UHGV virus genome: UHGV-1366603
DNA: 64,000 nt
Strand: one strand, 5' to 3'
DNA from: a virus
Of this stretch, positions 3,117 through 59,158 are shown piece after piece; the first letter of the stretch is position 1; the number at the start of each line of letters is the position of its first letter. The notes under the pieces are model-generated. The model worked only from the letters and a program-made list of their open reading frames with translations. It was not told where the DNA came from and ran no database searches. A program made the translations under genes and the position numbers.

Positions 3117-3629
3117 GTGGAACAATTCACGCCTGATTTGTCGTTAACTTCACTTAACATGGTTATTTCACTGGTTAACCATGACCTCCAGCTCGACTTG
3201 CAAGAGAACGAGGTTGAAGTCAGCGACGTAAAGACCAGTAACGAAATGGATCGTGACACCACTGCTGTTGTAAAGATAAAACGTCCCGGTAACAGAACGT
3301 TACAAATCTATTACAACCGTTTAACCGCAGAACGTTGGTTAAACCAGCAACCTATTCTGGTGCAAGTAACTGGAGAGGGGTTTAGCACACACGATTTAAT
3401 CGATGCGATTAACGCAGCCTGTGGCAGTAACCTGCAACCCGAAGATCTTCAGGACGATTCATTTACAGTAGGAAAAGACGCTGTAACGTTACAGGTATCA
3501 CCTAACTCCCTAAGTTATAAAGGCCAATTCTCTGTTTTGGTTTTTGGTAACGGCGAAGAAGCCGCAGTAACAAAAGATGACAACCTAATCGTTACCGCAG
3601 ATAATCGCGTCTTAACCTTTGGAGGTTAA
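3117..3629 (+). CDS. Hypothetical protein; possible weak member of the dispersed NTKVTLTA/Y-R-L family
   Basis: GTG start after RBS aggaggt; 170-aa ORF; motif TTAVVKIKRPGNRTLQIYYNRLT. Confidence 0.45.
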   Translation: MEQFTPDLSLTSLNMVISLVNHDLQLDLQENEVEVSDVKTSNEMDRDTTAVVKIKRPGNRTLQIYYNRLTAERWLNQQPILVQVTGEGFSTHDLIDAINAACGSNLQPEDLQDDSFTVGKDAVTLQVSPNSLSYKGQFSVLVFGNGEEAAVTKDDNLIVTADNRVLTFGG

Positions 3630-3631
3630 CA

Positions 3632-4252
3632 GTGGCTGAACTGGTAGGAAAGGTACGCATTCACGAGCTACCGTCACTTTCAGAAGACATCACTGGTGTG
3701 GTGGTGTTAGCGTCTAAGGAACAAACCGAATATCAACTCCCGATTGAGAATTTAGGGGGCGGCGAGGTTACAGTGAGTCCGTCAGCGAATAACATCCTTA
3801 AGTCTAACAGCGACGGACTGTTTGTTGACGGCGCACATCCTATTGTACCGAAAATGGATGCAAAAACCTTATCGGGAAATATGGTGGTAGAAAAAACGTT
3901 GACAGGCGGTGCAGTAATCTGCAAAACAACAGTTGACGTTAATAATAGACTGGGGGTTTCGCAATTATCTGGAGTGTCAATTTATAGCCAGTGTCTGCTG
4001 GAAAATAAATTGGTTTACCTGGCAGAAGACGGCAGTATTATTGATGCGTACTTCTACATTAGTAATACAAAGACCACAGCCAGTACAATAACCCACACCA
4101 TTCGGGTTGTCTTAGCGAAAGTACCTTCTAAAGTTGTCGATATCACCGATTTATCTGAAACTGAGGTGCAGTACGAGAATGGTAATTTGCCTGTTAAGAT
4201 CGTTATTAAGCATCTTACAGGGACAACACTTTCCCAGAACGGAATGAAATAA
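3632..4252 (+). CDS. Hypothetical protein
   Basis: 206-aa ORF, GTG start 2 nt after upstream stop; followed by terminator. Confidence 0.5.
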   Translation: MAELVGKVRIHELPSLSEDITGVVVLASKEQTEYQLPIENLGGGEVTVSPSANNILKSNSDGLFVDGAHPIVPKMDAKTLSGNMVVEKTLTGGAVICKTTVDVNNRLGVSQLSGVSIYSQCLLENKLVYLAEDGSIIDAYFYISNTKTTASTITHTIRVVLAKVPSKVVDITDLSETEVQYENGNLPVKIVIKHLTGTTLSQNGMK

Positions 4253-11344: not shown

Positions 11345-12193
11345 ATGTCTCTTACGTCAAAACAGAAACTGCTAAAACTCATCAACACTGAAAACAATAT
11401 TAGTCCACCGTTGACTTTCAGTGATGTTGATATCGGAGAACCTACCGGTACTGGGGTTGATACCCAGGTGGTTCTGACCTCTAAACTCAAAGGCGATGAG
11501 TCTACTACTTTAACAGTGACTTACCACCGTCGTAATTTACCTGACTACCTAACCGGCGAGTTGGTATTCGGTAACGACAGTGTGGTAACCGCATCGGATT
11601 TGCTTAATGCGATTAACGCAAAATACAACCTAAATATTTTACCCTCGGATATCGTTGACGCAAAAGTTGAAGGCGAAACCCATCAGCTTACCGCTAACGA
11701 GAAATCTTACGAGTGGTGCGGTGTAGTAACACTTACGCTGCGTGATCCTATTGACCTGACTGAACTGTTACCGGTTACACAATTAGAGAATCTGGTAGAG
11801 TATCCGTCCACGAAGAAAGGTAACGCGGCGGTTTATTCTCACCCGATTGATTTCACCGCAGAAAAAGATTACCTTGACCCGATTACTATCAACGACACCG
11901 TCGACCTGGCTGAGTTAGCCACTAAACTGGCTAACGTCGTTGATGAGAAATGGGTAAGCGTGCCTAAGAACGCGGCTAACAACCTGTTCGGTGCGAGGGT
12001 TATTTACGATGGTCCAACCGCAGGTTACGAAGGCGCAAATACGAAGTTCACACGTGTGTTGGTGCTGACGCTCAGCCCGCTGTGTTCTAACCTGACCGGT
12101 AATCTGTTAATCCACTTTAACGGCACCGATCGTCCGAAGTCGAAGATTGAATTAGCGCAGACTAATCCGGTCTTACCGGGATTCTTAGATTAA
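11345..12193 (+). CDS. Hypothetical protein, member of dispersed NTKVTLTA/Y-R-L family
   Basis: 282-aa ORF; N-terminal SDVDIGEPTG...TTLTVTYHRRNL. Confidence 0.5.
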   Translation: MSLTSKQKLLKLINTENNISPPLTFSDVDIGEPTGTGVDTQVVLTSKLKGDESTTLTVTYHRRNLPDYLTGELVFGNDSVVTASDLLNAINAKYNLNILPSDIVDAKVEGETHQLTANEKSYEWCGVVTLTLRDPIDLTELLPVTQLENLVEYPSTKKGNAAVYSHPIDFTAEKDYLDPITINDTVDLAELATKLANVVDEKWVSVPKNAANNLFGARVIYDGPTAGYEGANTKFTRVLVLTLSPLCSNLTGNLLIHFNGTDRPKSKIELAQTNPVLPGFLD

Positions 12194-12206
12194 GAGGATT
12201 ACAGTA

Positions 12207-12704
12207 ATGGCCAATCAAGAAACTATCTTCGACCTTATTAAAAAGGCTAACCCAGACGCCGAGTTCGACACCACTAAAGTCACGCTGGGTGATCCGGTCG
12301 TAACCACTGGTACTTACAATACCGAAATTACGGTTGCGTCGATTAAGAATCTCGGTTACACTAACAAACAAACGTTCCAGTATAACCGCATTGACGCAGG
12401 TTTGTATTTCCTGAACGTATTACCGAAGCTGTTAGTGGAGTCTGCAACGACTACCGCTGACTTACTGCCCGTCATTAACGAGCAGTACAGCCTAACCCTT
12501 ACAGAAGACGACGTGTGGGTAGAACAGGTTGGTGAGTTACCGTTAGACGGTAGCGCAATCGAACACGGTATTTTCTTCCGTCCTGAATGTTTAACCTGGG
12601 TAGGCGGTTTTACGGTGCGCGTTGCACGTAAACCTGCTGAAGATGTTGAACCTGCGCCGAAAGCAGCTAAAGCACGTACAACTCGTGCACGAAAATCCAA
12701 GTAA
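12207..12704 (+). CDS. Hypothetical protein, same family, with Lys/Arg-rich C-terminal tail
   Basis: 165-aa ORF; TKVTLGDPVV...TFQYNRID; C-terminus PKAAKARTTRARKSK. Confidence 0.5.
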   Translation: MANQETIFDLIKKANPDAEFDTTKVTLGDPVVTTGTYNTEITVASIKNLGYTNKQTFQYNRIDAGLYFLNVLPKLLVESATTTADLLPVINEQYSLTLTEDDVWVEQVGELPLDGSAIEHGIFFRPECLTWVGGFTVRVARKPAEDVEPAPKAAKARTTRARKSK

Positions 12705-12708
12705 GATT

Positions 12709-12746
12709 TGGGTGGGGTAAAACCCACCCAACGTTTTTCTTTTTTG
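12709..12746 (+). terminator. Intrinsic terminator
   Basis: Hairpin tgggtgggg-taaaa-ccccaccca followed by T-run. Confidence 0.7.
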
Positions 12747-12768: not shown

Positions 12769-13359
12769 ATGGCTGAACGTTGGACTAAAGAAGGTATTAT
12801 TGAATCCAAAACGGATTTAGAAGGCGGGTACGTCAACGACCCTGACGATTTAGGTGCAGAAACGAACCACGGTATCACGGTAACGACTGCACGTGAGTAC
12901 GGTTATAAAGGGAAAATGAAAGACCTTACCCGTACTCAAGCATTCGATATCTACGATCGTGGTTGGTGGAAGAAACTCAAACTCGATGAGATTTTCGCTA
13001 TCTCGCCTTTACTGGCTGACAGAATGTTTGATTTCGGGATTAACGCAGGGCGTGCTAACTGTGTGAAATCGCTACAGCGTATTCTCAACGTGTTGAACAA
13101 CGAAGGTAAACTCTACGCGGACATCGATGTTGACGGTGGAATGGGGCCTAAAACGCTGGGTGCGTTGAACGCGTACCTGAAATACCGTAAAGATGAAGGG
13201 CTAAGCATTTTAATCTTTGCGTTAATCTCGCACCAAGTAACTTACTACACGGAAATCTCCGAGAAACGTAAGCGAAACGAGAAATACACCTACGGCTGGT
13301 ACGGCCGCGTGTTCAGAGAAATGGCAGATTATGCGGTAAAAGCGGGGTTAGTAAAATGA
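12769..13359 (+). CDS. Endolysin: GH108-like lysozyme with C-terminal peptidoglycan-binding domain
   Basis: N-terminal EGGYVNDPDDLGAETNHGIT is characteristic of glycoside hydrolase family 108; C-terminal region resembles a PG_binding_3-type domain. Confidence 0.75.
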   Translation: MAERWTKEGIIESKTDLEGGYVNDPDDLGAETNHGITVTTAREYGYKGKMKDLTRTQAFDIYDRGWWKKLKLDEIFAISPLLADRMFDFGINAGRANCVKSLQRILNVLNNEGKLYADIDVDGGMGPKTLGALNAYLKYRKDEGLSILIFALISHQVTYYTEISEKRKRNEKYTYGWYGRVFREMADYAVKAGLVK

Positions 13360-13460
13360 ACTGGTTTGCTAAACTCTTAGCGTTATTGTGGAAAGCGTTA
13401 ACGTCTGGTCGAAAACGTAAAGACGAAAAACGTGGGCAAGAATTCTTCTGGTTTTTGTAA
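13356..13460 (+). CDS. Small ORF (34 aa) with hydrophobic N-terminus and basic C-terminus
   Basis: ATGA overlap with the endolysin stop; MNWFAKLLALLWKALTSGRKRKDEKRGQEFFWFL. Below the ORF-track length cut-off. Confidence 0.3.
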   Translation: MNWFAKLLALLWKALTSGRKRKDEKRGQEFFWFL

Positions 13461-13466
13461 GGAAAG

Positions 13467-14141
13467 GTGTGGGTAATGGAGAAGCTTCAATATAAACGTT
13501 TAGATAATAAGTGGTTTGTATTAACGGAGGATTACCATTATCCGTTTACGTTACGTGAGATTTATCACGACCACGTACACTTAGACCGTGCGGTTTATTT
13601 AACGGGCGTATTACCTGACACGCAACTGTGGTTAACAGCACCGAAAGGGTTCGTAACGGACTTAGCGTCGATACCCGAACACTTACAGGGAATTTTCCAT
13701 CCCGACGGGCCTTGGGCACCGGCTGCGTGTATTCACGACTTGTTATACCAGAAATGCAGTACGGAACGTAGCTACCCTATGACACCCGGTGGTAACGTTT
13801 CTCGAATTATCGATAAAGAGTTCGCTGACTTAACGTTTCTGCGTATTATGCAGTCGTTAGAAATCTCACCGTATATCTGCCAAACGTTTTATAAAGCTGT
13901 TGTAGGTTTCGGTTGGGATGCTTACGTAGACCCTAACGCGAAACCGTCTTATTCCACTAACGACTACCGTACGTTAGATTACAATCGAAACTATTTGTTC
14001 GTTCGCGAGTTTAAGGAACCTGCTATTCCTGACCACGAACGTGTTGATATCACCACAGGTTGTCCCGTTAATGTCAAATACCTGAACATTAAACGGGCTT
14101 TTCTGTCTGGGAGGGAAGATGTTTCATCCAAATCCGAGTAA
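13467..14141 (+). CDS. Hypothetical protein, possibly DUF1353-like
   Basis: Motif GFVTDLASIP...IHDLLYQ resembles DUF1353-type proteins (from memory). Confidence 0.45.
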   Translation: MWVMEKLQYKRLDNKWFVLTEDYHYPFTLREIYHDHVHLDRAVYLTGVLPDTQLWLTAPKGFVTDLASIPEHLQGIFHPDGPWAPAACIHDLLYQKCSTERSYPMTPGGNVSRIIDKEFADLTFLRIMQSLEISPYICQTFYKAVVGFGWDAYVDPNAKPSYSTNDYRTLDYNRNYLFVREFKEPAIPDHERVDITTGCPVNVKYLNIKRAFLSGREDVSSKSE

Positions 14142-14634
14142 TTTTAAAATCAAAGAGTTAGTACCACAATCGTACATCGCCAAATACGGCGATTCTGCAA
14201 TTCGGTTTATGAACCCGTTGTTAATGATTTCGCTACAACAGATTCGTAACCGTTTCGGCAGAATGGTGATTAACTCGTCTGCTGCGCAACAGCGTGGCCT
14301 AAGAACCTTAGACTTTTTCATCAACCAAGAAAAGCCTAAGGGCGGTAACTATAAACAACGTGCGTTACAACTCTACTCTGATTCAGGGAGTCAGCACAAG
14401 TTCGGCAACGCATTTGATGCGACTCTGTTAGATTCAACGGTAAAACAAGTCCACGATTACATCGCCGCCAATCCTGATGAGTTTCCGTTTATTCACTTTA
14501 TTGAATGCGACATCAGTTGGTTACATATCGATGTTCGTAACCAACCGAATATCACGTTCTGGTCACCGAATCGGGGTACTGTGAAAGTCGTGAAACAAAG
14601 CCCTATCGATTGGAGCGCCTTAGTTAAAATCTAA
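14119..14634 (+). CDS. Peptidase M15-like cell wall hydrolase
   Basis: SQHKFGNAFDA and WLHIDV fit the zinc-binding H..D / H motifs of M15 peptidoglycan peptidases. Confidence 0.6.
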   Translation: MFHPNPSNFKIKELVPQSYIAKYGDSAIRFMNPLLMISLQQIRNRFGRMVINSSAAQQRGLRTLDFFINQEKPKGGNYKQRALQLYSDSGSQHKFGNAFDATLLDSTVKQVHDYIAANPDEFPFIHFIECDISWLHIDVRNQPNITFWSPNRGTVKVVKQSPIDWSALVKI

Positions 14635-14725: not shown

Positions 14726-14757
14726 TACCCTCCTGCTAAGCAGGAGGGTATTTATTA
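14726..14757. terminator. Bidirectional intrinsic terminator between convergent genes
   Basis: Hairpin taccctcctg-ctaa-gcaggagggta flanked by T-rich sequence on both strands. Confidence 0.65.
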
Positions 14758-15234
14758 TTCTACCGGGTGCAACATAGTGCCGGTATCTGGAATGCTGCCT
14801 TCGTGACATCTGAAGAACGTTACACCTTTACCTTCACCCGTTTTGTAGTTGACGGTAGAATACGCAAACGTTGGGGTTTTCGACAGTAACCCGTTTACAC
14901 GGTAATAGCGCTCACCGGTAACGACGTTTAAGTTACCGTCCACCTTACCTAACAGGTCTTTATAAAGTTGCGGAGATTCAATTTTACCTTCGTCCCATGT
15001 AGCGACCCAATTCGCCCCTGTATCCATGACTAACACCGAAAGGGGCATCAGTTTTAGACTAGACGGTACGGGTTTAAAATCGTCGAATTCTTGAGAAGCA
15101 CCTGTACAGGTGTAAATGACCATATCGTGTTGGTCAACAGGTACGGTGGAGAACTGACCTTCTGCGTTCGGCTGAATAGCACAACTTGCCAATGTCATTA
15201 CAAAAGCAACGACCACGAGAATGCGTTTTAGCAT
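14755..15234 (-). CDS. Putative lipoprotein
   Basis: Signal peptide MLKRILVVVAFVMTLASC with lipobox L-A-S-C; 159 aa; opposite orientation to neighbours. Confidence 0.6.
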   Translation of the reverse strand: MLKRILVVVAFVMTLASCAIQPNAEGQFSTVPVDQHDMVIYTCTGASQEFDDFKPVPSSLKLMPLSVLVMDTGANWVATWDEGKIESPQLYKDLLGKVDGNLNVVTGERYYRVNGLLSKTPTFAYSTVNYKTGEGKGVTFFRCHEGSIPDTGTMLHPVE

Positions 15235-15372
15235 AATCTCACCCTTATTAAAATTAAGAAAAATTATTTTTTCAGGTTAGCGCCTACTGCCAACCGTCAT
15301 ATCTATATTTTAGTAAATGTCTAAAATAACTTTCTTATGCAATCCACCCCTACCACTTACGAGGTAAAAACG

Positions 15373-15909
15373 ATGGCTAAAGCCTTCAATCAGCAGCTTA
15401 TCGAAGCTGTAAAAGCCAAAAACCCTGAAACTGCTTCTAATCTAACCGTAGAAGACGTTGACTTTGGTGCCGTAGAAGCACATAGCGGAAACGGTGGCCG
15501 TAACACCAAAGTTACGCTGACTGCAAAAGAAGAAAGTGCTAACTTTACTGGCAGTAAAGAATTCCACTACACTCGTCTGGCTTCTCAAGATCTGATCGGT
15601 GCCAAAGCTTACGAACAAGCCGGTAGCCTCGATCTGGAAAACTCTGTCATCGTAACCAAACTCAACGAAGAAATGGTTACTAAAGGTTATACCGATGACG
15701 CTTTCGCTGAAGGCGAACTGACCATTGAGAAAACTGAAGGGGATAGCGGCGCTAAAGTTTACACCGTTAAAGTAAACGATGCACACATTAAATTCCTGGC
15801 TGGTACTATTGCCGTCTTCACTTATTCCAACCCAGCTCCTGAGAAGGTAGCACTGAGCGGTCTGGAAGGTGAACTTGATGGCTTCACTGCACCGGGTGTC
15901 GGTGGCTAA
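15373..15909 (+). CDS. Hypothetical protein, NTKVTLTA family, paralog of 15980..16510
   Basis: Start at ATG 15373 (RBS gaggtaaaaacg). Shares NTKVTLTA...(F)HYxRL and C-terminal GELDGFTA with the next gene. Confidence 0.55.
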   Translation: MAKAFNQQLIEAVKAKNPETASNLTVEDVDFGAVEAHSGNGGRNTKVTLTAKEESANFTGSKEFHYTRLASQDLIGAKAYEQAGSLDLENSVIVTKLNEEMVTKGYTDDAFAEGELTIEKTEGDSGAKVYTVKVNDAHIKFLAGTIAVFTYSNPAPEKVALSGLEGELDGFTAPGVGG

Positions 15910-15917
15910 GTAAGCGA

Positions 15918-15950
15918 AATCGGGGGGGGGTGACCTCCCCCGATATTTCT
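15918..15950 (+). terminator. Intrinsic terminator
   Basis: G/C-rich hairpin atcggggg...cccccgat followed by T-rich tract. Confidence 0.65.
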
Positions 15951-15979
15951 CTATCTCGTTTTATTAAGGACCTAAGATA

Positions 15980-16510
15980 ATGGCCGCTACTAACCAGATG
16001 ATGTTGGTCGCGCTTTATAATGCTGCTAACACTGAGCTACCGCATCAGATTACTGATAAAGAAGTGTCCTTTGGTCTCCCTACTGCGCTGGAAGGCGAAA
16101 GTAAGAATACCAAAGTTACCATGACTGCACTACCGGGTTCTGAGAATTTCAAAGGCGAAATCGAACTGCATTACGATCGTCTGGAGCCGGGTGTTGTAGG
16201 ACGGATTGAACTAACTGACGATCTGTCTCGCTGGGTTCAAGAAAATGAACTCCGCGCTTGGTTACAATATTACATCAACAAAGTAAAACCTGACGACGCT
16301 ATCGCACCAGGCGACGTTGTGTACAACACCGAAGACCAGAAAGACGAACATGAAAACGTCACTCTGCGTACCGTGACGTGCACCGTTACCGAAAAGAACC
16401 TCCGTTATAAACCGGGTGTAATGGCAACTTTCGTAATTACACCGAAGGTTGTCGATAATCGTATTGACCTGGCCACCACCAACGGTGAGTTGGACGGTTT
16501 TACTGCTTAA
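15980..16510 (+). CDS. Hypothetical protein, NTKVTLTA family
   Basis: 176-aa ORF; NTKVTMTALPGSENFKGEIELHYDRL; ends GELDGFTA. Confidence 0.55.
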   Translation: MAATNQMMLVALYNAANTELPHQITDKEVSFGLPTALEGESKNTKVTMTALPGSENFKGEIELHYDRLEPGVVGRIELTDDLSRWVQENELRAWLQYYINKVKPDDAIAPGDVVYNTEDQKDEHENVTLRTVTCTVTEKNLRYKPGVMATFVITPKVVDNRIDLATTNGELDGFTA

Positions 16511-44978: not shown

Positions 44979-45371
44979 GTGAAAATGAATATCAGAACTA
45001 TACTTTATTCAATCATTATTTTCTGTGCAATCGGTATTACTGGCACTTATGCTTTCGGCGATTCGGACGTCCGCCATTACGAACCGGCTCCTGACTCGCC
45101 CATTATCAACCCGGATGAGTCCCCTACGTTAATGCGCAGTTTCGGTAAACTGCAAGTTTATCGCTTAGTACGTGGTGAAACGTGTACCGGATTACTCATT
45201 GCTGACACCCGTGCACAGGTCTACCAACGTCTGACGGATATCGCCTGCGAACAACCAAAAGTCATGTCGGTCAGTATTCATCCGTTAGAGGTCGGTAACT
45301 ATACTGCTGTGGACTTCTTCCATAATGCAGAACTGATTGGTCGTATCACTTTAAATCGTAGCGCTGAATAA
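44979..45371 (+). CDS. Small secreted protein 2 (signal peptide)
   Basis: GTG at 44979 or ATG at 44985; hydrophobic ILYSIIIFCAIGITGTYA N-terminus. Confidence 0.5.
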   Translation: MKMNIRTILYSIIIFCAIGITGTYAFGDSDVRHYEPAPDSPIINPDESPTLMRSFGKLQVYRLVRGETCTGLLIADTRAQVYQRLTDIACEQPKVMSVSIHPLEVGNYTAVDFFHNAELIGRITLNRSAE

Positions 45372-45389
45372 TTTAATGGAGAATTTACA

Positions 45390-45872
45390 ATGAAACGTTT
45401 ACACACCCTGATGCTTTTCGTGGCTATTCTGTTCACAGGCTTTACCTTTAACACAGAAGCGGCTACCGTAAAACAAGCACTTAGCTGTAACCCGGAAGCC
45501 TGGGCTGAACAACCTGGTGCGTGTCCTGACATCAATACGCTCTATACCGACGACGCGACTTATAAAGCCGCAATCGATAAAGCGTTGAAACCTGTCGGAC
45601 TAGACGGGTTATTCGGTAAAGATGGTGTAATGAATGGTCCTGGCGGCGATGTTATTCCCGTGCAAATCAACGGTAAAGTCTGGCTTGAGTCTACCGCTTG
45701 CAAAAGCAATGCTTGTGGTTGGGAATACATCACGACGCTTTATAACCCGCAGACCCATGTCGTGGTAGGTTACTATTACAACGTCGACCCAGGTTACCTG
45801 GTCTGGTTCGGCGATATCGGCGTTAACGAATTCGCCTATCTGGTTAAGAAATACGTAGCTACGGTTAATTAA
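45390..45872 (+). CDS. Small secreted protein 3 (signal peptide)
   Basis: MKRLHTLMLFVAILFTGFTFNTEAA; four Cys in mature part. Confidence 0.55.
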   Translation: MKRLHTLMLFVAILFTGFTFNTEAATVKQALSCNPEAWAEQPGACPDINTLYTDDATYKAAIDKALKPVGLDGLFGKDGVMNGPGGDVIPVQINGKVWLESTACKSNACGWEYITTLYNPQTHVVVGYYYNVDPGYLVWFGDIGVNEFAYLVKKYVATVN

Positions 45873-45887
45873 TTTAAGGAGTCTGTC

Positions 45888-46298
45888 ATGAAAACGTTTA
45901 TCAAAACTTTACTCGTTGCTGTAACTGTTCTGTTCTCTCTTAACGTAGCAGCAAAAACAATAAAGCTACCGGCGGGTATCAAATACGTCAACAGTACCGA
46001 TGAATTCTACTGCACTGAAATTGACGGCCTGTATTGCCAGACAAAGAATTTGTTTGAATACAAAGGTAACAGATATGTTTTCGTTGTTGAGCAAGGTGGT
46101 GCCTGGTGCTACGACAGCCCTATGTCGGTACTCAACCTGGAAACTTGGAAAGCACAGAAAATTGAATACAAAGACAACCAACTGTGTTCAGGCGAAAACA
46201 AACCGTTCTTCAAAATCAAAAATGGTGTGCCGACTGTAGGTATTATCGACACCTCTGGAGCACCCATCGTTGTAGCTCAGGACAAACTTAAAATCTAA
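45888..46298 (+). CDS. Small secreted protein 4 (signal peptide)
   Basis: MKTFIKTLLVAVTVLFSLNVAAK; four Cys. Confidence 0.55.
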   Translation: MKTFIKTLLVAVTVLFSLNVAAKTIKLPAGIKYVNSTDEFYCTEIDGLYCQTKNLFEYKGNRYVFVVEQGGAWCYDSPMSVLNLETWKAQKIEYKDNQLCSGENKPFFKIKNGVPTVGIIDTSGAPIVVAQDKLKI

Positions 46299-46308
46299 GG
46301 AGTAAACC

Positions 46309-46698
46309 ATGCGTCTTATCTGCGCTTTGTTGGCGTTTTTCTCAATCGGAGTTATGGCTTCTACACACATCGACGATTTATTACTTACCCCGGCAACGAA
46401 CACAGACTATCACTACAACCCACCGGGTTTTGAAGTCTGCGAAGGCGATGCAGGCGAATGCCAAGAAGTTGGCGCAGATGGACGCTATATACTCGTAAAA
46501 GCAGACGGCGGGACAACCTGCCCTGCGGGTTATTATTTCGTACTTGACGCTGTAGCAAAAGAGGTACTTCCTGTAACGACCAAAACGTGTGACCCCACAG
46601 TTGTACTAACGCTTGCGAAAAGCAAATCACGTGACCGCCATCTTATCGTCATCGAAGAACGCGGTGAGATGCTAGGCGCTATCGAATTAGATTACTGA
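46309..46698 (+). CDS. Small secreted protein 5 (signal peptide)
   Basis: MRLICALLAFFSIGVMAS; Cys pairs CEGDAGEC and CPAG...C. Confidence 0.55.
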   Translation: MRLICALLAFFSIGVMASTHIDDLLLTPATNTDYHYNPPGFEVCEGDAGECQEVGADGRYILVKADGGTTCPAGYYFVLDAVAKEVLPVTTKTCDPTVVLTLAKSKSRDRHLIVIEERGEMLGAIELDY

Positions 46699-52695: not shown

Positions 52696-52795
52696 ATATT
52701 ATCATTAGGGCACACAACAAAGGAGTTCCAGCTGTCCGCGCCGTGATTTCGTTCTACGGAACACGGAAATGTATAAATCCAACTGGAGAACTAGT

Positions 52796-53482
52796 ATGTT
52801 TCGTATTTTCTTTCTTTTACTGGTAACACTTTTCGCGTTTAACGCATACGCATCCAAATCCGCACCCAGTGCCAAACACCATCGTGAATTCGAAATGATT
52901 CAAGACCGTTTCGAACGTGTAAAACCGTTGATTGTGGAAATCTCCCGAAAGCAGGGCGTCGATCCTAAGTTGATGACCACGCTAATCTATCGGGAATCGC
53001 GGTTTAATCCGAAGGCGTATAATCGAACGTCTAAAGCGCACAGTCTGGTTCAGATGCTACCGAGCACAAAGCGTAATTTGCTAAAACTCTACGGTGCCGA
53101 AATCGGACTTAGTCGTAACGCGGATTTGTATAATCCTCGTAATGCGGTGCTATTGGCTTCCGTCTACGTTAAACATTTAGAAAAGGGGTTGACTAAACGA
53201 CTCAAACGCAAGCCCACTATTGCAGAAATTGCATTGGCTTATCACTGGGGTGAAAGTGGTGCACACGCCAGGATTAAAAGCAAGTCTCGGGCAGCACAAC
53301 GAGAAATGGCGAGCTTTATGAAAGATGCAACGTTCTACAGTGCGAAAATCGACAAGCCTGTAGCATCTCGTCAGCTTGCGTTTGCGAAGAAACCAGAACG
53401 CCAGATTCAGTTAGCGGAAGTTAACCGAATTTGGGATACGATAAACACCAGTTTTCCATTTAAACAAGGAGTCACCCTTTGA
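52796..53482 (+). CDS. Lytic transglycosylase (SLT domain) with signal peptide
   Basis: Start at ATG 52796 (RBS ggaga). Signal peptide MFRIFFLLLVTLFAFNAYA; catalytic-region pattern LIYRESRFNPKAYN...AHSLVQMLPST...AYHWGE typical of SLT-type transglycosylases. Confidence 0.7.
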   Translation: MFRIFFLLLVTLFAFNAYASKSAPSAKHHREFEMIQDRFERVKPLIVEISRKQGVDPKLMTTLIYRESRFNPKAYNRTSKAHSLVQMLPSTKRNLLKLYGAEIGLSRNADLYNPRNAVLLASVYVKHLEKGLTKRLKRKPTIAEIALAYHWGESGAHARIKSKSRAAQREMASFMKDATFYSAKIDKPVASRQLAFAKKPERQIQLAEVNRIWDTINTSFPFKQGVTL

Positions 53483-54051: not shown

Positions 54052-54531
54052 ATGTTGAAGTTTATCTGGCGTTACCCAACCCGCTTTTGGTTCGTGGTAT
54101 TAGAGGTAATCACCGTTTTACTGTTAGTGACGTTCGTAAACGCCTCTACGAAACAAATGGTGATTTTCTGTGTATTCGTGGCTATACCGCTGTGGGTGTT
54201 TGCAAAGATTATTAAGTTTTACATGATAAGCTGGGCGAACTACACCTGTCCATTTAAACCCAGAGAAATCATGAACTGGTTGATGTATATCGAAGACCGT
54301 TTACCCGCTCAGTCTAAAACGTTAGGTTGGCAATCGATGTTGGATATTGCGCTAGAAACAAACGCAAAATTCCCTGGGTCAAAGAATCCTTATTTGCTGC
54401 TGGCTGTTATTGTTGCCCAGCAGAAACGTGCAGGCGAACGTTGGTTACCGAAAGAAGCGAAAGAGTATATTCGTAAACATCCGAAGGCTTTCTATTCCGT
54501 AGGTCAATGGCGTAACCTCCCACTCTTTTAA
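54052..54531 (+). CDS. Hypothetical membrane protein
   Basis: Two hydrophobic segments (FWFVVLEVITVLLLVTFV; MVIFCVFVAIPLWVFAKII); RBS aaaggag. Confidence 0.5.
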   Translation: MLKFIWRYPTRFWFVVLEVITVLLLVTFVNASTKQMVIFCVFVAIPLWVFAKIIKFYMISWANYTCPFKPREIMNWLMYIEDRLPAQSKTLGWQSMLDIALETNAKFPGSKNPYLLLAVIVAQQKRAGERWLPKEAKEYIRKHPKAFYSVGQWRNLPLF

Positions 54532-58195: not shown

Positions 58196-58699
58196 ATGGG
58201 TTCATTTCTTAAAGTGCTTCCGTTCTTCATTCAGATGTTGATGGAAGCATTTAAACCAGGAGAAGGAGAAAACGTATCAAGAGCAAACAAGATAATGACT
58301 TTAATCATCACGGTCTTGTTATCCTATTCGACTTTCGTCTCCTATGCGTACGTAGTGCAGTTTCACAAGCTCGTTACAGTACAATCTCATGATCAATACA
58401 TGTCGCAATCTTACCAAGAGATGAAGCAAGATCGTGACAAACTGAAAGATGATAATGGTAGATTATACGACAAGCTCTTTATTTGCCTCGGCCAGAAACC
58501 GCCATATGAAAGCGGGTACAGCACGGTAAAAGAAGACAACTCTACCAAAGATTTAACACCTAAGAAACCAGAAACTCCTGTTAGCCCAGCTTCAACACCA
58601 GAACAACGCAAAGAAGCTTCGGCGCGACCTGTTGGTAGTCAAAACGCTAACAGTTTCCGTCAGGAGATCATAAAGACGTTATCCTCACCTAAGGAGTAA
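58196..58699 (+). CDS. Membrane-anchored protein with coiled coil and Pro-rich tail
   Basis: RBS gaggtg; hydrophobic segment IMTLIITVLLSYSTFVSYAYVV, then charged heptad-like region. Confidence 0.5.
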   Translation: MGSFLKVLPFFIQMLMEAFKPGEGENVSRANKIMTLIITVLLSYSTFVSYAYVVQFHKLVTVQSHDQYMSQSYQEMKQDRDKLKDDNGRLYDKLFICLGQKPPYESGYSTVKEDNSTKDLTPKKPETPVSPASTPEQRKEASARPVGSQNANSFRQEIIKTLSSPKE

Positions 58700-58702
58700 C
58701 TG

Positions 58703-59158
58703 ATGAAATTGCTGTTATTCATCATGATTTTGTGCGTGGGTTTGGTGAGTAATAGCTATGGAGAACCCGGTAAACGGCCATCCTATACTGCGTTACAACC
58801 TCCGCCAGCGCCGCCTATCATGCTAAATTGGAAGATTGATAAAGACGCGATGCGGGAATATGTTGCGGATGTGAATACATACGCTTATTACGTTTATCTC
58901 TACACACGAAACTTAAATCAACAAGCAGTCAAGCGCGGGTGGAATCCACCGATGTTAGCGCCTATCTGCGAACGGTTTGAAATTCCTAAATTACATTCCG
59001 TTCCAGAGAAGATGTTATTAGACGACAAAGCGTTAACGCCACAAGAAATCAGTCGCGATTTATCACGTAAACTGAATTCGTTGTTGTGGAATTATCGCTC
59101 TGACCGGCAAGCTTTATTAGACGCCTACGATCAGTATCTGACAACGTGTTTGAACTGA
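58703..59158 (+). CDS. Secreted protein with Pro-rich N-terminal mature region
   Basis: Signal peptide MKLLLFIMILCVGLVSNSYG; mature start EPGKRPSYTALQPPPAPP. Confidence 0.5.
   Translation: MKLLLFIMILCVGLVSNSYGEPGKRPSYTALQPPPAPPIMLNWKIDKDAMREYVADVNTYAYYVYLYTRNLNQQAVKRGWNPPMLAPICERFEIPKLHSVPEKMLLDDKALTPQEISRDLSRKLNSLLWNYRSDRQALLDAYDQYLTTCLN

Follow-up and report, generated by a model that had tools for sequence, protein, structure and literature searches.

What does the short frame that overlaps the end of a jumbo-phage endolysin gene encode, and does its product take part in lysis? The question concerns UHGV virus genome UHGV-1366603, of which a stretch of 64,000 nucleotides (the window, numbered from its first letter) was analyzed. 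An open reading frame (ORF) of 34 codons, here called ORF34, lies at 13356..13460 on the forward strand. It begins with ATG, encodes MNWFAKLLALLWKALTSGRKRKDEKRGQEFFWFL, and ends in a TAA stop at 13458-13460. The ATG overlaps the TGA stop of the upstream gene (12769..13359), a GH108 peptidoglycan hydrolase and putative endolysin, within an ATGA at 13356-13359. A sequence-only reading had pointed out this unlisted frame and suggested a small membrane-active lysis accessory peptide; the residues it quoted and the ATGA overlap it described are exactly those found. ORF34 proved to be a gene under purifying selection and most plausibly belongs, as a divergent member, to a known small-ORF family, phrog_25143; its product may be a membrane-active lysis accessory. 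Neither the existence of the gene nor its family is new.

Chance frames are common at this locus. Seventy ORFs of at least 20 aa overlap the same 6-kb stretch, so 34 codons alone are not beyond chance. Conservation, not frame length, is what exceeds chance. Close relatives were retrieved through the endolysin rather than the peptide and comprise six loci with 88-98% endolysin identity; the most diverged of them, L010, was the reference for substitution counts. ORF34 differs from its L010 counterpart at 11 nucleotides, 8 of them at third codon positions and none at second positions. Nine of the changes are synonymous and two are non-synonymous, giving a non-synonymous to synonymous ratio (pN/pS) of 0.05, next to 0.09 for the endolysin gene, 0.07 for the downstream DUF1353 gene, and 0.04 for the gene of a 171-aa protein that follows. 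The two alternative frames contain stops, and the same differences are mostly non-synonymous there. Among 15 distinct operon haplotypes, third codon positions of ORF34 have a diversity of 0.099, first positions 0.023, and second positions 0.008. None of the 17 operon copies read from close relatives breaks the frame; the peptide's 90%-identity cluster has 39 members, and the 15 that were listed are each 34 aa in length. The identical peptide is present on 397 public contigs. Based on the substitution pattern, the intact frame in relatives, and homologs at the same overlap, we are highly confident that ORF34 is a genuine protein-coding gene under purifying selection. The sequence-only reading had staked its proposal on conservation of the frame in related phages. 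That conservation was found, both in the close copies and, at the corresponding overlap, in phages of Seoulvirus and Erskinevirus.

Two other explanations of the frame were considered. It could be a chance open frame in a non-coding spacer, with the DNA conserved for an RNA element or for the translation initiation region of the DUF1353 gene. ORFs of 34 codons are common by chance, low nucleotide diversity reaches past the end of the frame, and the Prokaryotic Genome Annotation Pipeline (PGAP) made no call for it. This explanation is nonetheless highly improbable, as the changes cluster at third positions and are synonymous (9/11) in the frame of ORF34 only, and the motif NWF..L....[WG][KR]AL with its basic cluster persists in different genera (~30% amino-acid identity) despite divergence of the DNA. 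An Rfam search of the region gave no match, and RNA folding was no better than that of shuffled sequence (z-score +0.39); the RNA-element version was therefore rejected. Alternatively, a -1 frameshift could extend the endolysin at its C-terminus and add a cationic membrane-active tail. Some Gram-negative endolysins have C-terminal amphipathic cationic helices, and in the window the frame of ORF34 is open for 28 codons upstream of its ATG. However, SPN3US, EC001, STsAS, pEa_SNUABM_29, and the Erskineviruses have in-frame stops 1-6 codons upstream of the start, and in EC001 and pEa_SNUABM_29 the stop sits immediately 5' of the start codon. No slippery heptamer was seen, and every lineage starts with ATG or GTG. 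Fusion with the endolysin, the more improbable still of the two, was rejected because of these in-frame stops in relatives.

One feature of the locus is recorded here separately. Nucleotide diversity among the 15 haplotypes is 0.02-0.06 at 13369-13600, compared with 0.07-0.15 in the flanks. The dip covers most of ORF34 and the first ~125 nt of the DUF1353 gene, synonymous sites included. A tract of recent recombination or a recent sweep could explain it, as could additional constraint, and no signal of RNA structure was seen.

The window comes from a jumbo phage of ~222-226 kb. Its operon has ~60-65% amino-acid identity to those of SPN3US (Salmonella, Seoulvirus) and the Erwinia jumbo phages of Erskinevirus and Machinavirus, a distant kinship. 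Megablast of the operon against the phage collection gave no match, and relatives emerged only using blastn at distant settings. The peptide of the window gave no match by tblastn against phages even at E 10, found only its own cluster when compared by phmmer with 1.84 billion cluster representatives, and matched no family in Pfam, NCBIfam, or PHROGs. The family link was found by reading the syntenic gap in relatives and by building a custom hidden Markov model (HMM).

SPN3US-type phages have three conserved small ORFs, A, B, and C, within the 265-292 bp that separate gp156 (GH108) from gp157 (DUF1353). ORF A encodes MKQNWFAALMKAIWRALVFAARRKRNDPPSNSA and starts at an ATGA or GTGA on the endolysin stop. 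ORF B encodes ...DSGFFK[LM]LRAIF[CF]RRV..., and ORF C encodes a 30-aa tail-anchored transmembrane (TM) peptide, ...DDWP[KE]GLMP.L.GL.... In Erskineviruses, C is absent and both A and B are present, A being annotated in Asesino (gp172) and Stratton (gp173). ORF A peptides form phrog_25143, a family with no assigned function, and homologs were found by tblastn in more than 30 Seoulvirus and Erskinevirus genomes.

The PHROG HMM of phrog_25143 detects SPN3US ORF A (E 3.4e-12) and Asesino gp172 (1.5e-26) and does not match the window peptide at E<=0.1. Only ORF A peptides, seven in all, of Seoulvirus and Erskinevirus went into the custom HMM. When the 1,824 six-frame segments of the window were searched with it, ORF34 was the sole match (E 2.8e-4; next best 1.8), with NWFAKLLALLWKAL...RKRKD of ORF34 aligned onto NWFvtLMrAvgRAL...RrkRhd. 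M1, N2, W3, F4, L7, A14, and L15 are invariant in the alignment of eight sequences. ORF34 has the N-terminal NWF motif, the [WG][KR]AL motif, the basic cluster, and a length within the 33-37 aa of the family. It also has the family's synteny, with a start on the endolysin stop ((A/G)TGA) and a DUF1353 gene downstream. Membership in phrog_25143, as a divergent relative, is thus the best reading of the custom-HMM match and the identical synteny.

The known members (Asesino gp172, Stratton gp173, the phiEaH2 homolog, and the unannotated SPN3US ORF between gp156 and gp157) likewise overlap the GH108 stop upstream of a DUF1353 gene, and share the common motif M(K.)NWF..L....[WG][KR]AL followed by an R/K cluster. 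ORF34 differs from them in several respects. Identity is only 26-35%, the MK[QST] prefix of the family is missing, and the C-terminus is DEKRGQEFFWFL where the family has a Pro-rich polar tail. No B-type second peptide gene follows ORF34, and homologs of the B- and C-type peptides were sought elsewhere in the window and none were found.

The frame is unlisted, as the sequence-only reading had called it, in that reader's own ORF track and in PGAP output. It is not unlisted in NCBI, where the exact peptide is DAH66011.1, a "hypothetical protein" of a Caudoviricetes metagenome assembly; the homologs Asesino gp172 and Stratton gp173 carry annotations, and homologs form phrog_25143. In NZ_CP173450.1, a 221,873-bp circular "plasmid" (p98232-contig_4) of E. 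coli strain 98232, the operon is 95% identical and the ORF is kept (R19Q), and PGAP left the 34-aa ORF unannotated. PGAP-style annotation thus misses a conserved gene here, and the SPN3US RefSeq record lacks up to three conserved small genes in its 290-bp "gap".

Several minor observations concern these records and relatives. NZ_CP173450.1, from human urine in Egypt, is filed as an E. coli plasmid but has the size of the jumbo phage and is probably its genome, carried with or contaminating the isolate; it points to E. coli as a host. ORFs A, B, and C are all unannotated in SPN3US NC_027402.1 (136033-136323 of the record; 3576-3866 of the retrieved locus, L001), and other records annotate one or two of them. 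In two Machinavirus-type phages (L043, L069), the N-terminus of B and C form a single fused ORF, which suggests that SPN3US B and C are halves of a split gene into which an amphipathic segment was inserted. A and B both carry [LM][ML]RAI[WF] and may be paralogs. The C-terminal GQEFFWFL of ORF34 (13437-13457) loosely resembles the DSGFFKLL core of the B-type peptide (L001 3722-3745), with TTCTTC in both. ORF34 could conceivably be an A-B fusion truncated by deletion, a weak suggestion.

The ORF34 peptide has a net charge of +5, 32% charged residues, and 7 aromatic residues in 34 (3 Trp and 4 Phe). Residues 1-18 are hydrophobic and amphipathic, with a hydrophobic moment (muH) of 0.45 and a mean hydrophobicity (<H>) of 0.39. 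Residues 19-29 form a charged, mostly basic block, and the tail is an aromatic FFWFL. The hydrophobic amphipathic N-terminus and basic middle noted by the sequence-only reading are therefore present as described. The amphipathicity is real but modest; relatives of ORF34 have muH values of 0.53-0.61. Lys6 and Lys13 lie on one narrow face together with Asn2, Ala9, and Thr16. AlphaFold2, run on the single sequence, predicted one helix spanning residues 4-33 with a mean predicted local distance difference test (pLDDT) score of 74.

ORF34 has no predicted transmembrane domain (TMD), no lipobox, and no Cys. Its best Kyte-Doolittle 17-mer mean is 0.85 (usual threshold ~1.6). The summed Hessa apparent insertion free energy (dGapp) of its best 19-mer, a segment that includes Lys6 and Lys13, is +9.9 kcal/mol. 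For the C-type TM peptides that relatives carry at this place, the value is +1.7 to +2.3 kcal/mol, and the type I toxin peptide TisB has a much lower insertion cost of +2.0 kcal/mol. Given the low Kyte-Doolittle mean and high dGapp, ORF34 is too polar for a classical transmembrane segment. The predicted profile is that of an interfacial, in-plane membrane binder.

The position of the gene was compared across phages. The endolysin stop is TGA in lineages with the small ORF and TAA in lineages without it. Machinavirus-type phages (Huxley and four others) and Erwinia phage ChrisDB carry, in place of A, a 38-52-aa peptide resembling the N-terminus of B fused to C. Other TM peptides of 33-43 aa occupy the slot in L047 (33 aa) and L068. 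In GH108 phages outside the clade, the gene directly after the endolysin encodes an i-spanin (three phages), a spanin pair (two), or a multi-TMD holin-like protein (three), and a start overlapping the endolysin stop is often seen there too. Spacing between the small ORF and the DUF1353 gene ranges from 15 nt to more than 190 nt among relatives. The slot is consistently used for small lysis-type membrane proteins; its occupant varies by lineage, and it can be empty. The presence of membrane peptides in this slot in relatives, and of holins or spanins in other GH108 phages, supports a role for ORF34 as a membrane-active lysis accessory.

Such a role would work as follows. Ribosomes ending on the endolysin would re-initiate at the overlapping ATG, as the geometry suggests, so that the peptide would be made with the enzyme at a linked rate. 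The cationic, Trp/Phe-rich helix would lie in the bilayer plane of the cytoplasmic membrane, bound to its anionic inner leaflet, in the manner of melittin or a type I toxin. Late in infection, the peptide would perturb or depolarize the membrane. This perturbation could help the GH108 enzyme, for which no signal peptide or TMD was predicted, to reach the wall, or could trigger or accelerate lysis. After failure of the sacculus, the outer membrane may be a further target, as it is for the phiKT disruptin. We give an even chance to ORF34 encoding a membrane-active lysis accessory of this kind. The suggestion of the sequence-only reading thus stands as far as position is concerned, in a slot shared with membrane peptides, holins, and spanins; the lysis function itself is a proposal drawn from that position and from composition.

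The closest demonstrated analog of ORF34 is the phiKT disruptin, by analogy rather than membership. Disruptin (gp28) is a 56-aa, membrane-bound protein of charge +7 with no TMD or lipobox that is required for outer-membrane disruption, and gene 28 directly follows and overlaps endolysin gene 27 (Holt et al., bioRxiv 10.1101/515445). Like ORF34, gp28 is small and cationic, is predicted to be helical, and lacks a TMD and a lipobox, and its gene adjoins and overlaps the end of an endolysin gene. Charged residues make up 27% of gp28 and 32% of ORF34. The two differ in that gp28 is longer and hydrophilic overall, whereas the 34-aa ORF34 has a markedly hydrophobic aromatic N-terminus; phiKT lacks spanins, whereas the window phage has spanin candidates; and the function of gp28 is demonstrated, whereas that of ORF34 is proposed.

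Melittin and TisB are not homologous to ORF34, and the likeness to them is physico-chemical only: a hydrophobic amphipathic helix that contains or precedes basic residues. ORF34 (muH 0.45, <H> 0.39) is close to melittin (0.55, 0.30) in these values, and the helix leads into GRKRKDEKR in ORF34 and into a terminal KRKRQQ in melittin. Melittin is a secreted peptide that attacks cells from the outside. Holins (classes I-III and pinholins) resemble ORF34 in their small size, charged C-terminal region, and location next to the endolysin gene. A TMD is the one universal feature of holins, however, and ORF34 has no predicted TMD. ORF34 was also considered as an o-, u-, or i-spanin and rejected, having no Cys or lipobox, no TMD, and only 34 aa.

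Several results weigh against a lysis accessory role. The amphipathicity of ORF34 depends on the window chosen, with a shuffle p of ~0.001 for the best one (residues 1-18) and 0.09 for residues 2-19. BLASTP of ORF34 against phiKT gp28 (word size 2, E<=1000) gave no match. L063, the nearest outgroup (70% identity in the endolysin), has nothing between its endolysin and DUF1353 genes but a terminator hairpin of 38 nt. The peptide is therefore not required for the endolysin to work, and the small gene is dispensable in evolution. Its distribution is patchy, as A is absent from the Machinavirus-type phages and ChrisDB. The window also has homologs of Cronobacter phage CR5_183/184 at 58196-58699 (+; tblastn E 2.8e-16) and 58703-59158 (+), proteins that are the best, though unproven, i- and o-spanin candidates of that related jumbo phage (Kongari et al. 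2018). With these spanin candidates in the window, a spanin substitute is not needed. A few genes upstream of them are an SLT transglycosylase of 237 aa at 52769-53482 (+), whose signal peptide looks cleavable (AYA|SK), and a 159-aa protein with two N-terminal TMDs at 54052-54531 (+). These four genes may make up a second, more conventional lysis module. The operon of ORF34 is not purely lytic, since SPN3US gp158, the homolog of its 171-aa protein, is found in virions and not in tailless heads. In the literature on SPN3US, Erwinia jumbo phage lysis, and gp156, no experiment on any member of the ORF34 family was found. A recent paper on the lysis cassette of phiKZ concerns another endolysin in another cassette, with no mention of the phages considered here.

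The main rival to the lysis-accessory reading is a real small gene with a role unrelated to lysis, as a partner or regulator of the DUF1353 or 171-aa protein, an assembly factor, or a host-takeover or superinfection-exclusion peptide. It would suit the company the gene keeps, in a unit shared with DUF1353 and a virion protein homolog and set within an array of DUF7941 genes whose SPN3US homologs are virion proteins, as well as its dispensability in the nearest outgroup and the separate lysis-like module ~40 kb away. We consider it possible but somewhat unlikely, because the overlap is conserved with the endolysin stop and not with DUF1353, the peptide has the composition of a membrane binder, and unrelated GH108 phages put holins or spanins in the slot. 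ORF34 could instead be the holin of the phage, a minimal hole-former that releases the signal-less GH108 enzyme. It is the only hydrophobic small gene of the operon, it has the small size and charged C-terminal region of a holin, its endolysin has no export signal, and holins occupy the same position in other phages. Against this stand the missing TMD, with two lysines in the hydrophobic stretch, the absence of the gene from the nearest outgroup with the same endolysin, and the 2-TMD protein at 54052-54531, which lies near the SLT and spanin genes and is a more conventional holin candidate. A holin is accordingly very doubtful.

Were the peptide membrane-active in lysis, it would be the second independently evolved antimicrobial-peptide-like phage product wired to an endolysin, after the phiKT disruptin. 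It would moreover be found in a very widespread phage, as indicated by the 397 contigs and by a circular 222-kb element from an E. coli isolate of human urine, and would offer a first point of entry into lysis by SPN3US-type jumbo phages, for which no functional lysis-gene study was found in the literature searched. A broader proposal, which we regard as quite unlikely, is that the slot between the endolysin and DUF1353 genes in SPN3US-like jumbo phages is a swap-site for micro-peptides of ~27-50 residues, an unrecognized class of minimal lysis effectors in which A and B are cationic and amphipathic and C is a tail-anchored TM peptide. Here, the 34-aa A-type peptide alone, made stoichiometrically with the signal-less GH108 enzyme, would permeabilize the cytoplasmic membrane to release or trigger the enzyme. 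If the swap-site proposal is true, ORF34 would act as a release factor that has no TMD and needs no holin, and no smaller phage lysis protein would be known.

The genes around ORF34 look like one transcription unit, since terminators flank them on both sides. A terminator-like hairpin followed by a T-run at 12708..12731 (+), with a 9-bp stem and 6 GC pairs, ends the upstream DUF7941 gene and sets the 5' limit of the four-gene unit. A bidirectional terminator hairpin at 14726..14750 shuts the unit and a convergent lipoprotein gene. ORF34 would be the second cistron of this compact unit, which encodes the GH108 endolysin, the 34-aa peptide, the DUF1353 protein, and the 171-aa peptidase-like protein.

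The first gene encodes a 196-aa protein with GH108 and PG_binding_3 domains (Pfam E 3.6e-21 and 3.3e-17) and belongs to the endolysin family phrog_315. SPN3US gp156 and gp157 are missing from the virion mass-spectrometry table, and based on the absence of gp156, the GH108 enzyme is probably a true endolysin. A GGGG at 13344..13347 (+), 8 nt upstream of the ATG of ORF34 and within a conserved Gly codon of the endolysin, appears to be a weak Shine-Dalgarno-like element for the small ORF; relatives have GGGG, GGGA, or GGA at this position. ORF34 itself contributes the N-terminal amphipathic aromatic helix, the basic cluster RKRKDEKR, and the C-terminal FFWFL. Directly 3' of its stop is GGAAAGG (13461..13467, +), the Shine-Dalgarno sequence of the next gene.

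That gene encodes a DUF1353 protein of 221 aa (13476..14141, +; Pfam 1.4e-15), beginning at an ATG at 13476, 15 nt after the ORF34 stop, as supported by gene calls in relatives. It belongs to phrog_1158, which has the PHROG label "tail assembly chaperone". The last gene (14119..14634, +) overlaps it by 23 nt and encodes the 171-aa protein of a PHROG "endolysin" family (phrog_894, 3.5e-27). This protein has an H-x6-D ... H motif typical of M15/LAS peptidases, and its weak Pfam match to Peptidase_M15_3 (E 0.036) falls short of Pfam's cutoff.

Further observations were made elsewhere in the window. The CR5_184-like protein carries "MILC", which is not a canonical lipobox, and may not be a lipoprotein. 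Four tandem genes at 44979-46698 (+) encode proteins of 129-160 aa that all have a TMD or a signal peptide at the N-terminus; three match phrog_9424, phrog_8968, and phrog_5248, and one has no PHROG. The endolysin operon is inserted within an array of DUF7941 paralogs (11345-12704 and 15337-16510). The SPN3US counterparts of the flanking DUF7941 genes (gp138-155 and gp160) are virion proteins that tailless particles retain, and a non-structural lysis-type unit thus lies inside a block of structural paralogs. A monocistronic gene for a 159-aa lipoprotein, MLKRILVVVAFVMTLASC, with lipobox LASC (phrog_9559), lies at 14755-15234 on the reverse strand. The lipoprotein was rejected as a spanin, having no C-terminal TMD and no partner gene; its sole spanin-like match was to the signal peptide (E 0.077). 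The gene is convergent on the endolysin operon, shares the terminator at 14726-14750 with it, has a promoter-like site at 15293-15266, and has a conserved counterpart in SPN3US (gp159).

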